Shown here: piece by piece, positions 46,504-60,113 of the stretch
Layout of the letters: each line of letters starts with the position of its first letter
Numbering within the stretch: position 1 is the first letter of the stretch
Assembly: GCF_044324785.1 (NCBI RefSeq)
Contig: NZ_CP172127.1
Source of the DNA: Escherichia coli
GTDB lineage: Bacteria > Pseudomonadota > Gammaproteobacteria > Enterobacterales > Enterobacteriaceae
DNA: 64,000 nt
Direction: 5' to 3' (one strand)
Position numbers and translations under genes: made by a program
The notes under the pieces: model-generated
The model's input: the letters and a program-made list of their open reading frames with translations, nothing else
Databases searched by the model: none
What the model was told of the DNA's origin: nothing

Positions 46504-48150
46504 TTATTCAATCTCTTCACAGACATCCTGAGTTAATCGCCGCATAATATCTTTCCTTAACAAAAACTTTTGTATTTTACCTGAGGCTGTGCGCGGTAGT
46601 TTTTCGATTACCACGATATGTTCAGGATATTTATATTTCGCGACCCGTTTACGGCTAAAAAATGCCACCACCTCTTCCAGCGATAATGAATGATGCGGCG
46701 CTTTCAGCACGACATAAGCGCATGAACGTTCACCTAAGCGTTCATCGGGCATTGCAACCACACAAGCATCGTGAATTTTAGGATGCTGTAATAAAATATC
46801 TTCCACTTCACGGCTGCTAATATTTTCGCCGCCGCGGACAATAATATCTTTCTTGCGCCCGGTTATTTTTATATAGCCAGCCTCATCCATGCGGCAGAGA
46901 TCGCCGCTGTAATACCAGCCTTCTTCATCCAGCGCACGGGCGGTTAATTCAGGTTCATCAAAATACCCCATAAACACATTGGGGCCACGCGAGGCTTCTT
47001 CACCTTCGTAACCTGGCGGTAAGGTCTTGCGTGCGTCATCGACCACTTTAATCTCAACTCCTGCGGCAGCGTAACCATCGGTGTGCATAAAGCGCGATAA
47101 AGGATCGTCGAGATTCACCACTGCGTGCGGCGAACTTTCTGTGGAACCATAAACACTTAATAATTTAATGCCGCGCTGCTGGCATTCACGCGCCACTTTT
47201 TTGGGGATTGTGGTCCCGCCGCAAAGAAAGAAGCGCAGCGCTGAAAGGTCTGCGGGTTGTTTCTCCAGTAAATTCAAAAGATCATAGACAAACGGCGTTG
47301 CGCCGAGCATACAGGTGCAACGCTGCTGCTCAAGCAGCGCGAGACACGCATCAGGAGTGAAAATATCTAACAACACGCTGCGAGCGCCAATTAAGAATGG
47401 TGCCGTTACGCCATGCAGAAAGCCCGTTGCATGACCAAGTGGCGCAGGCATCATAAAGACATCCTGCCAGGTCAGATTCAACCGCGCGCAATAAGCCCGC
47501 TCACTGGCGAGAATATTGTTATGCGTTAGCATCACGCCCTTTGGCAGACCCTCGGTTCCGGAGGTAAACAGCACCGCGGCTAATTCATCGCCGTGGACCG
47601 TTATCGCCGTGGTCAGAGGAGTATTGTCGGCGATAATCTGACTTAATGAGAGGGAAGAGGTGGCGGGAGCCAGTTTGTCCACGCCGACAATTTGTTGTAG
47701 TTGTGGAAGCTGATTTTGCAGCGGCAGGATTAAATCTACCGGACGCGTTTGTTTAAACAACGTCGGAGCAAAGAACATTTTTGCCTGACACTTATTGAGC
47801 ACCCATACCAGTTCTGCTTCCCGCCAGGAAGGCAACAGCGGTACGGAAACCGCACCGATTTTCAGGCAGGCAAGATAGATAACGGTAAATTCACACCAGC
47901 CAGGCAGTTGAAATGCGATGCGATCGCCTGATTCAATACCCTTCGCTAACATCCAGTTTGCCAGACAGCTCGCGGCGTGATCGAGCGCGCTATAGGTGTA
48001 CGATGCTCCATGATTATCGACCACGGCAATTTTGTCTGGCATCGCACGAGCGGTCTGCTGCCAGTAATCGGCCAGCGAAGCATCGCCCCATAGCCCTTGC
48101 TGACGATACGCCGCACGACGTTGTTCGTTAAACGTTAATGTCACTTTCAT
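46504..48150 (-). CDS. fadK: short-chain acyl-CoA synthetase FadK (anaerobic)
   Basis: ORF 46504..48204; start preferred at ATG 48150 (MKVTLTFNEQ..., 548 aa); the longer frame start at 48204 has no Shine-Dalgarno; adenylate-forming enzyme motifs. Confidence 0.9.
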   Translation of the reverse strand: MKVTLTFNEQRRAAYRQQGLWGDASLADYWQQTARAMPDKIAVVDNHGASYTYSALDHAASCLANWMLAKGIESGDRIAFQLPGWCEFTVIYLACLKIGAVSVPLLPSWREAELVWVLNKCQAKMFFAPTLFKQTRPVDLILPLQNQLPQLQQIVGVDKLAPATSSLSLSQIIADNTPLTTAITVHGDELAAVLFTSGTEGLPKGVMLTHNNILASERAYCARLNLTWQDVFMMPAPLGHATGFLHGVTAPFLIGARSVLLDIFTPDACLALLEQQRCTCMLGATPFVYDLLNLLEKQPADLSALRFFLCGGTTIPKKVARECQQRGIKLLSVYGSTESSPHAVVNLDDPLSRFMHTDGYAAAGVEIKVVDDARKTLPPGYEGEEASRGPNVFMGYFDEPELTARALDEEGWYYSGDLCRMDEAGYIKITGRKKDIIVRGGENISSREVEDILLQHPKIHDACVVAMPDERLGERSCAYVVLKAPHHSLSLEEVVAFFSRKRVAKYKYPEHIVVIEKLPRTASGKIQKFLLRKDIMRRLTQDVCEEIE

Positions 48151-48206
48151 TTTGGACTCTCGAGACAGAACATCAGGCCCGAGATGCGGGCCTGTGGGAT
48201 GCATGA

Positions 48207-48500
48207 TTAGCCGTAGCGAAAATCAATACCGAAGGTGCCTGCGGGATATTGCCACTGTTCGAGAATAGTGTTGCCGCACAGCACCCGACAGGTGCCGCAC
48301 TCCAGACAACCGGCGGAATCGAAATGAATATTTCCTGCGTCATCCTGCTTATAAAGTCCGGCAGGGCAGGCTTTCATTAATTTACGGAATTCATTGATAT
48401 CGGGATTTGCCGCCAGAATGATATGCGGATGGCCCTCATCAACATGGAATTTATTGACGCCTAATTTGATGTCGACGTTAACCGTAGCGTTCTGGCTCAT
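48207..48500 (-). CDS. ydiT: ferredoxin-like protein YdiT (FixX homologue)
   Basis: ORF 48207..48500, 97 aa; Cys cluster CPAGLY...CLECGTCRVLC. Confidence 0.93.
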   Translation of the reverse strand: MSQNATVNVDIKLGVNKFHVDEGHPHIILAANPDINEFRKLMKACPAGLYKQDDAGNIHFDSAGCLECGTCRVLCGNTILEQWQYPAGTFGIDFRYG

Positions 48501-57406: not shown

Positions 57407-58672
57407 TTAACCTCTATGCTTAATTGTGTTTAACCGGGTGCTAAATTTACGCTCGCCAAACCGCACATCATTTTCAGGAATAATGAAAACGCGGTAATAG
57501 CGGATAAAGACAATAATTGCGGTAATCAGGGCCAGCAGCGCGAAAGTAAAATCGAGAGCAATGATATATTGCAGACCGATGTTCGACAGATAACCGGTAA
57601 TCAGCGGAATAACAAAATTAGCCAGTCCACCCATCATCATATATATACTGGTGACTTTGGCTTTGCTTTTTGGGAAAAACTCTGACATGACCGAAACGCC
57701 GAGCTGTAAAATGCCGCCAGCTGCTGAGAAACCGATAACAAAGGCTCCGGCATTACACACCAATGGAGAAGGGTACAGGTAGATAATGGCAGCTGTTATT
57801 GTTGCCAGTGCAGAGTTAAATACATTAGCCCAGATGGGCCGGACCATTTTTTTCAGCAGTGCGGCAAAAATAAAGACACAGACCAGCGAACCCATACTGT
57901 AATAAGAGATGGTTTTTAATGCCTCAGCTTCTGACATACCAGCAAAAGCCATCGCATATTTGGGCATCCACACCACAATCACATAAAAGGTCGAGAATGC
58001 GGCTACACCGAACAGTACCGATGAAACACCTTCCAGCCAGACTAACGGTTTGCTGTTCATTTGCGGTAATTCATTAGCTACGCTGGCGTCCACCAACTGG
58101 CTGGGGAATTTGCTTTTCAACAGCATCAGCGTGATCAGTACAAACAGAATACCCGGAATAATCAGCCCATAGCCGTACCAGATGTTATTGAGCAACATAT
58201 AGCTCACCAGCATTGGGTAGAACATTTGTCCGAATGACACCATCGCTTTAACCAGTATGACCGCCGAACCAGAGGCTTTCGGAAAGCATTCCATGAGCGC
58301 GGGGTAGCCACCCGTATCCAGCGCTGAGTTAGCGATACCTACGCACACTGCCAGACAGTAGGCGAGAGTTAAATTCGGGCAAGCGGGAATACCAAAGAAG
58401 AATAGCAGATACATTATTACTGCCATTAATATCACCGCCCGACGACCAAACTTATCGGAGATCACACCGAAGAATAAAATACTGATCAATCGCCCCAAAC
58501 CGATACCGGAAATTAAATAGGCAATGCCCGCGTTGTCAGTGGAAAACTTTTCTGCCAGAGATGACATATTTTGGGCAAGCGTAATAACACTAATGCCGTG
58601 CAGGAAATAGCTGAAGTAAATACAAAGAACAGCCAGGATAAATGGCGTGCTGAAAGCCTTATTTTGAGACAT
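57407..58672 (-). CDS. ydiN: MFS transporter YdiN
   Basis: ORF 57407..58678; start probably ATG 58672 ([10 protein letters not shown]..., 421 aa). Confidence 0.9.
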
Positions 58673-58898
58673 TTTCACAGCTCCTTGCTGAAAGATAATT
58701 TCGTTACCGTACGTATTGTTCTCCGACGGTTTACATAATTACTATACTGAAGATGATTTTCTCTGGGTACATGGCATAAAGTTTATGTTTCCAGGAATAT
58801 TGCATGTCATAGTTTGTTTTTGATCGCGATTTTCCTTAGTTAGCGCAGAAAGAGTTATTTATCCGTAAGATCTTGCATGACCTGAAAAGAATATTGCA

Positions 58899-60113
58899 TT
58901 ACCCACCCGGAGCGACATTTTCCTTTAGCGAGTGATGCCGCGTTTTTTTGCGGCTGCGTAAGCCGATAAACAGTGCCAGTAAAAAGCCGATGGCAGCGAT
59001 GGCGGTATCGAACCACATAATATCGGCAATACTTCTTTGGGACAGATGAGCCGTAATCAACGGAATAGTAAAGGTCGCAATACTGCCCGCACTGTAATAG
59101 ATCCCTGTAGCTTTACCTTTAGCGTAAGGGAAACGTTCAGCCATTAACGTCAGGCCAATTTGCACAACACCTCCAGCAGAGGTAAAACCAATGACAAAAG
59201 CAAATATTATCACCACATAAAATGTGGGATGCAGGCAGACGGTAAACAGAGCAATAAATGAGATAAAGGTGTACAGCATGAGTAATGTTGTTGGGCGAAC
59301 GGTATTACGAATGAGTGGAGCGGTAATAAATACACAAAGCAGCGAACCCACGGTGTAGATACTGAGTAGTTTGATCGACATAGTGTATGACATGCCTGCA
59401 ACAAATTGTCCGTACTGTGCCAGCCACTGGCTAACCAGATAAAACGTTGCCATTGAGATATAGCCATATAAGGTATAACTGGCTAAATCGATAATTGAAC
59501 AGCGATGTTCCGTAGAGCTGGTGGTTTTCTTTATGACAGGTAAGCGACGACCCGGATGGGGTGGGAACGTACAACGGTATAAAAACAGAGCGTTAATAAA
59601 CATAATGCCTGCAGCAATCATAAAGGACCAACCGAACCACAGTTCAGCCCACACTAACAGGCTAATGATTAGCGGTAATAAAAATTGTCCGCTGGAAACA
59701 AATGCTTTAATTAAAATATTGGCTGTCCCAGGTGAGCGTGGAAAAGCTTCCATCAAACTGGGATAAGTGCCTGCATCGAGAAAACTGTTTGCCATTCCCG
59801 CCAGAAAGCCCAAAACATAAGCGATAATGATGTTATTGGTGTGCAGGATGCCAAAAAAGAAGGCCATATAGCAGCACATCCCGAGCATGATAAAAGGGCG
59901 GCGACCAAAGCGATCGGATAATAATCCTGCAAAAAGCAAGACACTTAATCGACCAATGCCCAGCGATGAGATAACTATCGAGACACCCGCGGCATTAGTC
60001 TGCCAAAGTGTCTCCAGCGAGGCCATATTCAGGCTCATCAAAATGACGCCCATACCATGCACCAGGTAATTAAAATACAACCCAAGTGCGGTAGGGTAAT
60101 AGGGATTTTTCAT
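58899..60113 (-). CDS. ydiM: MFS transporter YdiM
   Basis: ORF 58899..60113, 404 aa. Confidence 0.93.
   Translation of the reverse strand: MKNPYYPTALGLYFNYLVHGMGVILMSLNMASLETLWQTNAAGVSIVISSLGIGRLSVLLFAGLLSDRFGRRPFIMLGMCCYMAFFFGILHTNNIIIAYVLGFLAGMANSFLDAGTYPSLMEAFPRSPGTANILIKAFVSSGQFLLPLIISLLVWAELWFGWSFMIAAGIMFINALFLYRCTFPPHPGRRLPVIKKTTSSTEHRCSIIDLASYTLYGYISMATFYLVSQWLAQYGQFVAGMSYTMSIKLLSIYTVGSLLCVFITAPLIRNTVRPTTLLMLYTFISFIALFTVCLHPTFYVVIIFAFVIGFTSAGGVVQIGLTLMAERFPYAKGKATGIYYSAGSIATFTIPLITAHLSQRSIADIMWFDTAIAAIGFLLALFIGLRSRKKTRHHSLKENVAPGG

Follow-up and report, generated by a model that had tools for sequence, protein, structure and literature searches.

The ydiN-to-fadK block of Escherichia coli as a candidate module for CoA-dependent reduction of quinate and shikimate

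The locus and the question

Positions 46504-60113 of the window (the whole stretch of 64,000 nucleotides of E. coli DNA that was analysed, from contig NZ_CP172127.1) hold the chromosomal block fadK-ydiTSRQ / ydiP / ydiO-ydiF-aroD-ydiB-ydiN-ydiM, which is followed by ydiL and the small RNA RprA. A shikimate arm and an arm built around acyl-CoA enzymes and an electron-transferring flavoprotein (ETF) meet here, and the question that the locus raises is whether the two serve one pathway and, if they do, on what substrate. To our knowledge, YdiB has no settled physiological role. The genes ydiF, ydiO, ydiP and ydiQRST have repeatedly been cited as lacking an experimental function (PMC9329746 among others). 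The genes themselves, their order and their resemblance to cai/fix are already known; what appears to be new, on comparative evidence, is the case for the shikimate arm and the acyl-CoA/ETF arm as one conserved, co-regulated module, together with a proposal for its substrate.

The reading preferred here is that the block from ydiN to fadK is a single module for cytoplasmic, CoA-dependent reduction of quinate and shikimate, an anaerobic 'shikimate respiration', and the case for it stands about evenly balanced. Slightly more tentative is the physiological claim that E. coli, many Enterobacterales and Sutterella use quinate and shikimate as anaerobic electron acceptors by way of a thioester pathway made up of YdiN, YdiB, AroD, YdiF/FadK, YdiO and YdiQRST under the control of YdiP. 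The identities of the genes, their co-occurrence despite rearrangement and the motif that they share are direct results. The genes, in order along the window, are:

46504-48204 (K-12 start) or 46504-48150 (PGAP start), minus strand: fadK (ydiD), acyl-CoA synthetase (NCBIfam NF004758, 1089 bits)
48207-48500, minus strand: ydiT, FixX-type ferredoxin-like protein (63% identity to FixX)
48497-49786, minus strand: ydiS, homologue of FixC and ETF-quinone oxidoreductase (equivalog, 975 bits)
49842-50780, minus strand: ydiR, ETF alpha (large) subunit (NF008884, 692 bits)
50800-51564, minus strand: ydiQ, ETF beta (small) subunit (NF008998, 496 bits)
51880-52791, plus strand: ydiP, AraC-family regulator (C-terminal AraC helix-turn-helix matches)
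52834-53985, minus strand: ydiO, CaiA-family acyl-CoA dehydrogenase (NF008997, 787 bits)
53999-55594, minus strand: ydiF, fused family I CoA-transferase (PDB 2AHU/2AHV/2AHW, full length, 1192 bits)
55740-56498, minus strand: aroD, type I 3-dehydroquinate dehydratase (TIGR01093, 292 bits)
56529-57395, minus strand: ydiB, quinate/shikimate dehydrogenase (NF009390, 668 bits; matches PDB 1NPD/1O9B)
57407-58672, minus strand: ydiN, transporter of the major facilitator superfamily (MFS), candidate importer (MFS family matches)
58899-60113, minus strand: ydiM, MFS transporter and ydiN paralogue ('putative exporter' in the K-12 annotation)

Genome annotation, the list of open reading frames (ORFs) and the NCBIfam equivalog models agree on this content, and each gene named by the original prediction lies at the coordinates that it had been given. 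The same prediction counted eight consecutive minus-strand genes; the named ones are seven, and the plus-strand ydiP breaks them up. Its description of YdiP as divergent is right relative to ydiQ (315 bp gap) but not relative to ydiO, with which ydiP converges (42 bp gap). The run into aroD that it took to be unbroken does continue in the order aroD-ydiB-ydiN-ydiM, but with a gap of 145 bp between aroD and ydiF that contains a stable hairpin. The start of fadK differs between annotations: K-12 RefSeq places the ATG at 48204 (566 aa), 2 nt after the ydiT stop, and the PGAP annotation of strain N3 places it at 48150 (548 aa), leaving a gap of 56 nt.

The block belongs to the E. coli core genome. 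Over 46504-60113, strain N3 (NZ_CP031609.1) matches the window at 100% identity and 5424 other complete-genome records match it at 95-99%; a match exists in 5425 of 5426 complete E. coli genomes, and in 5301 of the 5426 at least 80% of the block is contiguous. A recent horizontal origin of the block in E. coli was dismissed on the ground that its base composition is ordinary for the host. Protein identity between E. coli and Yersinia is uneven along the block (YdiO 92-93%, YdiF about 89%, YdiB about 85%, AroD about 70%, YdiP about 65%), a pattern that likewise speaks against the block having been transferred recently as one piece.

Conservation and rearrangement of the gene set

The comparison of gene neighbourhoods across Enterobacteriaceae that had been proposed along with the original prediction was carried out on a wider range of bacteria: YdiO served to scan one genome per species, and all 13 proteins were then used as tblastn queries. 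It returned a colinear block in ten genera of Enterobacterales and the same gene set, differently arranged, in three further orders of genes. The ydiL-to-fadK block is colinear in Escherichia, Citrobacter, Kosakonia, Intestinirhabdus, Yersinia, Serratia, Dickeya, Brenneria, Prodigiosinella and Symbiopectobacterium. The four gene orders are:

Order 1, Enterobacterales: ydiN-ydiB-aroD-ydiF-ydiO, with ydiP on the opposite strand, then ydiQRST-fadK
Order 2, Sutterella (Betaproteobacteria): ydiQRST-fadK divergent from ydiN-ydiB-aroD-ydiF-ydiO
Order 3, metagenomic contig L056: MFS-ydiF-ydiO-ydiQ-ydiR-ydiB-aroD-ydiS-ydiT in one direction (YdiO 83% identity)
Order 4, metagenomic contig L054: MFS-ydiF-ydiO-ydiQ-ydiR-aroD-ydiS-ydiT-fadK (YdiO 77% identity; 43% G+C)

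Common to the four are a YdiN-like MFS transporter, AroD, YdiF, YdiO and YdiQRST; YdiB is found in three (not in L054) and FadK likewise in three. Every rearranged version of the cluster keeps aroD inside it, and in L054 and L056 aroD lies between the genes for ETF alpha and FixC, a position that is hard to explain for a dehydroquinase gene unless all belong to one pathway. The array of L056 is compact, with gaps of 11-28 bp except for 140 bp before aroD and a 4 nt overlap of ydiS and ydiT, and an orthologue of YdiP (45% identity) is encoded upstream of it on the opposite strand. Genes for aldo-keto reductases are close to the array of L054. The Sutterella version is carried by the type strain of S. 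wadsworthensis (locus L039); ydiP, ydiM and ydiL were all absent within 10 kb of the Sutterella cluster.

These arrangements bear directly on the view that the block consists of two unrelated neighbours: ydiM/ydiN-ydiB-aroD for uptake or salvage of quinate and shikimate and for aromatic biosynthesis, and ydiFO with ydiQRST-fadK for anaerobic beta-oxidation of short- and medium-chain fatty acids such as butyrate, in which YdiO would act as a dehydrogenase, ETF and YdiS would pass electrons to the quinone pool, and fadIJ would supply the remaining steps. We regard this view as rather unlikely. It does not account for aroD, with or without ydiB, within the ETF operon of L054 and L056, nor for the shikimate arm remaining attached in Sutterella despite the inversion.

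More distant homologues of YdiO (62-68% identity) have MFS and ETF genes and a CaiB-type transferase nearby, without aroD or ydiB; the link to aroD and ydiB is thus specific to the orthologous group. These homologues belong to a second cluster family, seen in an E. albertii-like contig (L051), in Desulfovibrio desulfuricans (L049/L050) and in a member of the Pectobacteriaceae (L055). Its parts are the YdiO-like reductase at 62-68%, a divergent second acyl-CoA dehydrogenase, an MFS transporter, ETF always and FixCX in some; a CaiB-type CoA-transferase is present in L049-L051, and none was seen in L055. These clusters look like further, undescribed modules for CoA-dependent reduction or oxidation of acids. 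One YdiO-like gene at 74% identity (L052/L053) is solitary, having no partner genes, and is uninformative. In Anaerovirgula multivorans (Clostridia), a homologue of YdiF (63% identity to the E. coli protein) lies beside a LacI regulator in the neighbourhood of a shikimate dehydrogenase, a TctABC transporter, dehydroquinases I and II and a MaoC dehydratase.

Shared upstream repeats and YdiP

Alignment of the intergenic regions of ten Enterobacteriaceae reveals a repeat, TGCAA(G/T)AT, that is common to two spacers, ydiP|ydiQ and ydiM|ydiN, and that in each case lies on the same strand as the genes that follow. The predicted regulator sites in the window are:

51683-51784, minus strand, upstream of ydiQ: AACAAGAT at 51784-51777, TGCAAGAT at 51763-51756 (21 bp later) and TGCAAGAT at 51690-51683 (73 bp later)
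58797-58898, minus strand, upstream of ydiN: TGCAATAT at 58898-58891, TGCAAGAT at 58877-58870 (21 bp later) and TGCAATAT at 58804-58797 (73 bp later)

Orientation and the 21/73 bp spacings are the same upstream of both genes, and the positions of the repeats are kept across genera of Enterobacterales. The two-neighbour view has no ready account of this equality of motif and spacing in front of ydiN and ydiQ. Six copies of the string TGCAAKATT are present in the 64 kb window (shuffle mean 2.1), four of them inside the two spacers (541 bp), a count to be read in the knowledge that the motif was derived from the very sites counted, so that its independent tests are the recurrences in Sutterella and L056 only.

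In S. wadsworthensis, the only three exact matches in 21 kb all fall in the ydiQ|ydiN spacer, two of them 21 bp apart (by our own arithmetic, random placement would put all three members of a triplet into that spacer in about 0.0003 of cases); S. seckii has pairs of one-mismatch repeats at the same spacing. In L056, the repeat is found next to the YdiP orthologue and also in front of the two MFS genes. Activators of the AraC family typically have tandem sites at a distance of 21 bp, which makes YdiP the obvious candidate for the protein that binds the repeats. The pairing of YdiP with TGCAA(G/T)AT is put forward as a candidate on this ground. YdiP itself has a weak full-length match to HpaA.

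Several further features of these spacers may be recorded. The spacer between ydiQ and ydiN in S. wadsworthensis is 1.36 kb long (L039 3655-5018; L057 3666-5030), and it holds the repeats, no ORF of more than 80 aa and no detectable remnant of ydiP. In the Citrobacter freundii group (eleven loci), an insertion of about 180 bp separates the distal from the proximal TGCAAGAT in ydiP|ydiQ, extending the 73 bp spacing to about 250 bp. In E. coli, 5215 of 5366 genomes share the ydiQ-ydiP spacer (51500-52000) at 99% identity or more, where the 13.6 kb block is 95-99% identical to all but one record, so that the spacer is more conserved than the coding DNA that flanks it. The convergent ends of ydiO and ydiP (52792-52833, 42 bp) contain a short G+C stem at 52818-52832 followed by T-rich sequence, which could be a terminator for ydiP, possibly a bidirectional one.

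General scans of the window added little. The promoter scan (19 promoter-like sites where 21.3 are expected) and the terminator scan (21 terminator-like sites where 16.6 are expected) are both uninformative, and Rfam finds RprA only between 46000 and 61500, with no known leader or riboswitch. Scans with the FNR, CRP, TyrR and NarL consensus sequences gave only an FNR-like site at the start of ydiP and a CRP-like site in ydiL|ydiM, each with two mismatches; for CRP, the ydiQ, ydiN and ydiF promoter spacers hold no site within two mismatches, and the one weak match among the four spacers scanned is that in ydiL|ydiM. Matches of FNR quality are so frequent (53 in the window) that the sequence neither supports nor refutes anaerobic control. 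Farther along, ydiJ (D-2-hydroxyglutarate dehydrogenase; 62499-64000, continuing past the window end) is a frameshifted pseudogene in the N3 annotation and intact in K-12.

The redox and CoA proteins

BLASTP against the Cai and Fix proteins of K-12 shows five clear paralogues: YdiO shares 48% identity with CaiA, YdiQ 55% with FixA, YdiR 45% with FixB, YdiS 61% with FixC and YdiT 63% with FixX. FadK and CaiC match only distantly (29% identity), BLASTP finds no hit between YdiF and CaiB, and counterparts of CaiB, CaiD, CaiE, CaiT and CaiF are absent among the 13 proteins of the block. The earlier statement that the block has the same parts list as cai/fix is accordingly accurate for YdiO and YdiQRST, strained for the ligase, and wrong for the CoA-transferase and the remaining Cai proteins.

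YdiO scores 452 bits on the CaiA equivalog model, under the cut-off of 540, and is therefore a paralogue of CaiA rather than CaiA itself. Both have GGGT in place of the YEGT of MCAD-type enzymes, a motif that carries the catalytic glutamate of MCAD, and the motif FExER is invariant; analogy with isovaleryl-CoA dehydrogenase suggests that the catalytic base of YdiO may lie on helix G. The YdiO proteins of Yersinia, Serratia and Dickeya share 92-93% identity with that of E. coli. The solved chain closest to YdiS is the FixC of the Thermotoga maritima EtfABCX complex (7KOE_C, E = 1e-70), and those closest to YdiQ are the bifurcating ETFs CarD (6FAH_B), LctB and C. difficile EtfB, with canonical ETFs ranking below. 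YdiT has five Cys, including CxxCxxCxxxC at residues 65-75, which suffices for one clear cluster motif; the 4 nt overlap of ydiT and ydiS is present in every genome examined. YdiF, whose PDB entries bear the title 'putative enzyme ydiF', is separated from ydiO by 12-20 bp in the loci of Enterobacterales.

The family of FadK carries some information on the substrate. Its equivalog model is named 'medium-chain fatty-acid--CoA ligase', its second-best NCBIfam family is cyclohexanecarboxylate-CoA ligase (422 bits), and its closest solved structures are salicylate- and 2,3-dihydroxybenzoate-AMP ligases. By sequence, FadK is thus grouped with activators of aryl and alicyclic ring carboxylates, which would fit a six-membered-ring acid and which speaks against a dedicated fatty-acid pathway; a C7 ring acid also fits its C6-C8 optimum. 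The acyl-CoA synthetase and acyl-CoA dehydrogenase of a fatty-acid beta-oxidation set are present (FadK, YdiO); genes for enoyl-CoA hydratase, 3-hydroxyacyl-CoA dehydrogenase and thiolase are found neither in the block in the window nor in any of the four architectures. Their absence from every cluster version is another difficulty for fatty-acid oxidation, to which fadIJ or fadBA elsewhere in the genome could supply the missing steps. Of the aerobic qui/qsu catabolism of quinate, the dehydrogenase and the dehydroquinase are represented (YdiB and AroD), and a 3-dehydroshikimate dehydratase, which would open the protocatechuate route, was found neither in the block nor in related loci.

Sequence resemblance places YdiO and YdiQRST with reductive systems: they are paralogues of CaiA and FixABCX, and the nearest solved relative of YdiQ belongs to the caffeyl-CoA reductase complex. 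A single unit could also run oxidatively, with dihydroshikimate from gut bacteria or a cyclohexane carboxylate activated by FadK/YdiF and dehydrogenated by YdiO, electrons passing through YdiQR and YdiST to quinone in anaerobic respiration, and the resulting shikimate or dehydroshikimate entering aromatic biosynthesis via YdiB and AroD. Such a unit would draw on the same evidence from synteny and motif, the succession of acyl-CoA dehydrogenase, ETF and an enzyme like ETF-quinone oxidoreductase is the normal oxidative chain, and the shikimate kinase found in the cluster of Serratia and Brenneria (see below) would suit it. On the other hand, the closest paralogous system, CaiA/FixABCX, runs reductively, the activity of YdiB on quinate would go unexplained, and the reported physiology of Sutterella points the other way: the organism reduces shikimate, and the reduced product gave no stimulation of growth (10.1101/2022.12.26.521950). 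On balance, oxidation is quite unlikely.

Very improbable is a third possibility, that YdiO with YdiQRST is a generic crotonyl-CoA/butyryl-CoA oxidoreductase that has no dedicated substrate and serves as the enoyl-CoA reductase of reversed beta-oxidation. It is used in this role in metabolic models and engineered strains, in which, however, deletion or overexpression of ydiO brought little change in butyrate production (PMC13126070); it also leaves unexplained the link to aroD, ydiB and ydiN and the high identity of YdiO across genera of Enterobacterales.

A candidate pathway

As a cyclohex-1-ene-1-carboxylate, shikimate would give an enoyl-CoA when esterified with CoA, and enoyl-CoAs are the type of substrate on which CaiA-like reductases act. 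YdiB acts on quinate as well as shikimate, and AroD dehydrates 3-dehydroquinate; these activities are established, and their use in the order that leads from quinate to shikimate is part of the proposal, as are the substrate, the direction of the reaction, the source of electrons and the pairing of regulator and sites.

The preferred reading, reduction by a single module, can then be laid out as follows. Quinate or shikimate would be imported by YdiN, and quinate would be converted by YdiB to 3-dehydroquinate, by AroD to 3-dehydroshikimate and again by YdiB to shikimate, with no net redox change. YdiF would move CoA from the reduced product onto shikimate, FadK having primed the first acyl-CoA at the expense of ATP, and YdiO would reduce the C1=C2 double bond of shikimoyl-CoA. 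Electrons would reach YdiO through the ETF YdiQ/YdiR and the FixCX-like YdiS/YdiT, from menaquinol through YdiS or from NADH through ETF. YdiF would finally free dihydroshikimate (3,4,5-trihydroxycyclohexane-1-carboxylate), which YdiM may export, and YdiP would switch on the ydiN and ydiQ promoters through the TGCAA(G/T)AT repeats. The original prediction had read the arrangement as a sign that an organic or hydroaromatic acid is taken up anaerobically, activated with CoA and reduced. For a hydroaromatic acid, that idea has gained real support from the rearranged but conserved gene sets, the shared upstream motif and the phenotype of Sutterella, with shikimate as the proposed substrate and reduction as the proposed direction.

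The Sutterella phenotype is the nearest approach to physiology. In S. wadsworthensis and Eggerthella lenta, shikimate supplied together with formate is reported to stimulate growth as an electron acceptor and to be reduced to hydroshikimate (Little et al., preprint, 10.1101/2022.12.26.521950). Carriage of the cluster by the type strain of S. wadsworthensis matches this phenotype and makes the cluster a candidate for its basis. In the same work, a flavin reductase was induced in E. lenta, RNA-seq was carried out on species other than Sutterella, and faecal shikimate was measured at levels that depend on the microbiome. A shikimate-producer transcriptome has ydiQ, ydiR, ydiS and ydiT among its strongest changes (20-32 fold; false discovery rate (FDR) 0 for ydiQ, ydiR and ydiT), with ydiF at 7 fold and ydiB at 3-5 fold, not significant (PMC4015609); it compares growth phases, has no non-producing control and is ambiguous as to direction, and as such is weak evidence. 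Of the homologues in the YdiM/YdiN family, 75-86% are encoded next to genes of the shikimate pathway, and ydiN is co-expressed with ydiB and aroD (PMC10588857). A limited literature search found no paper that links ydiF, ydiO or ydiQRST to reduction of quinate or shikimate.

Evidence for separate functions

A number of observations weigh against a single reductive module, and several of them favour two separate neighbours. They begin with the junction between the arms. The gap between aroD and ydiF is at least 76 bp in every genome examined, and in the window it contains:

55702-55729, minus strand: stable hairpin just after aroD (9 bp G+C stem, -17.6 kcal/mol, z = -4.2; no U-tract directly after the stem)

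The stem (GGCGGG...CCCGCC) is kept in most genera, and the hairpin-bearing gap is consistent with separate units. The TGCAA(G/T)AT site is absent from the aroD|ydiF spacer. (A different repeat, GAATATTC-N5-8-GAATATTC, lies in this spacer upstream of ydiF in Citrobacter, Kosakonia and Intestinirhabdus (55640-55700 in the window; loci L008-L022), with the form GATATTCG...CGAATATC in C. werkmanii and a degenerate copy in E. coli. Each GAATATTC octamer is its own reverse complement, and the repeat is thus possibly the site of a dimeric regulator or an RNA stem.) Moreover, aroD is also the biosynthetic dehydroquinase gene of E. coli, and its position could have another reason.

The shikimate arm has also attracted genes of its own. 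A LysR-type regulator gene is divergent from ydiN, between ydiM and ydiN, in Yersinia, Serratia, Dickeya, Brenneria and Prodigiosinella (ten loci), and a gene for an AroL-type shikimate kinase (228 bits, cut-off 161) adjoins ydiM, in ydiL|ydiM, in Serratia, Brenneria and Prodigiosinella (three loci); neither is present in E. coli. Both would fit salvage into biosynthesis. On the other arm, the relatives of YdiS include ETF-quinone oxidoreductases, enzymes characteristic of oxidation pathways, and relatives of YdiF at 62-67% identity are common in Firmicutes, so that its family is not specific to the proposed pathway. The derivation of the repeat motif from its own sites has been stated above. 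Sutterella could, for its part, reduce shikimate by one of its many periplasmic flavin reductases instead.

The literature, whose proposals the original prediction did not mention, assigns the acyl-CoA arm to fatty acids. FadK has been described as a short/medium-chain acyl-CoA synthetase with its highest activity on C6-C8 acids, and it allows a fadD mutant to grow anaerobically on fatty acids (Campbell 2003 and Morgan-Kiss 2004, via PMC9329746); its activity on butyrate and hexanoate is compatible with all readings if the enzyme is promiscuous. Nuccio and Baumler (2014) listed ydiFO, ydiQRST and fadHIJK as an anaerobic beta-oxidation pathway. In Salmonella, ydiQRSTD, with ydiD, has been tied to butyrate use under anaerobic respiration (Bronner 2018, as cited by others), and the butyrate phenotype, as described in those citations, requires a respiratory electron acceptor, a point that the oxidative single unit shares. 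YdiQR was put forward as the ETF of FadK by gene proximity only, and the 2022 review that discusses it states that 'experimental evidence is lacking'; by the same account, anaerobic induction of fadK was not confirmed by transcriptomes and there is no evidence that FadR or CRP controls fadK (PMC9329746), which tells against the fatty-acid assignment in E. coli. The two-neighbour view is nonetheless that of the literature (PMC9329746; Nuccio and Baumler 2014; Bronner 2018 at second hand): published data on E. coli and Salmonella point to fatty acids, and a role of ydiF, ydiO and ydiQRST with shikimate would follow from sequence comparison.

Significance

If they formed a single pathway, it would be clear why the quinate/shikimate dehydrogenase, the dehydroquinase, two transporters, a CoA-transferase, a reductase, an ETF system and a ligase have remained neighbours in two bacterial classes. 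Plant foods commonly contain quinate and shikimate. If the proposal is true, YdiB and about nine little-characterised y-genes acquire a physiological role, shikimate respiration has a second, CoA-dependent route, and reduced cyclohexane carboxylates in the gut have a named genetic source. A new function would also alter the reading of the loss of ydiQRSTD in typhoidal Salmonella, and the use in metabolic engineering of YdiO, a standard example of a poorly annotated gene.

Comparison with known systems

The system most like the block is the caiTABCDE/fixABCX system of E. coli itself. The two have in common a CaiA-family enzyme, a FixAB-type ETF, FixC, FixX and an AMP-forming ligase (45-63% identity for the five redox proteins, 29% for the ligase), and the order of the FixABCX genes is equal. 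An ATP-sparing CoA-transferase cycle and anaerobic reduction of an enoyl-CoA are established for Cai and would be shared by ydi. They differ in their CoA-transferases (CaiB is of family III and YdiF of family I), in the lack of ydi counterparts of CaiD, CaiE and CaiF, in transport (the BCCT antiporter CaiT as opposed to the MFS transporters), in the AraC-type regulator of ydi and in the class of substrate. The double bond arises on the CoA ester in Cai, whereas in ydi YdiB and AroD would introduce it into the free acid.

The caffeate respiration of Acetobacterium woodii (CarABCDE) follows the same logic of a priming ligase, a CoA-transferase loop, a reductase of the acyl-CoA dehydrogenase type and an ETF. 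Its substrate is likewise an unsaturated acid derived from plants; CarD is the solved protein nearest to YdiQ, and CarC also matches YdiO. CarCDE is soluble and bifurcates to ferredoxin, with a ferredoxin domain fused to CarE, whereas in ydi the FixC- and FixX-like proteins are separate, an arrangement suggestive of a connection with the quinone pool. The EtfABCX/FixABCX complexes of T. maritima (7KOE) and Azotobacter vinelandii share the four-gene ETF-FixC-FixX organisation and the close match of YdiS to 7KOE_C. In them, NADH reduces quinone and ferredoxin or flavodoxin without an acyl-CoA enzyme as partner. Such complexes are marked by a second, bifurcating FAD and an NADH site in the small subunit and by two [4Fe-4S] clusters in FixX; YdiT has only five Cys.

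The anaerobic beta-oxidation model (fadIJK, ydiO, ydiQRST) and butyrate use by Salmonella ydiQRSTD concern the identical genes and are the current assignment in the literature. That model leaves out ydiB, aroD and ydiN and does not predict the rearranged clusters. A chemical precedent is provided by the ansatrienin pathway of Streptomyces, in which shikimate-derived cyclohexanecarboxyl-CoA is made by activation as a CoA thioester and reduction of a ring double bond, as proposed for ydi; the pathway is biosynthetic, goes through several rounds of dehydration and reduction, and uses other enzyme families and neither ETF nor FixCX.

Nearest in physiology is the shikimate-induced flavin reductase of E. 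lenta (Little et al. preprint), by which a gut bacterium reduces the enoate shikimate to hydroshikimate as a respiratory acceptor. That enzyme is described as respiratory-like, of the urocanate/fumarate reductase type, and CoA is not reported for it; the ydi route would, in contrast, be cytoplasmic and dependent on thioesters.

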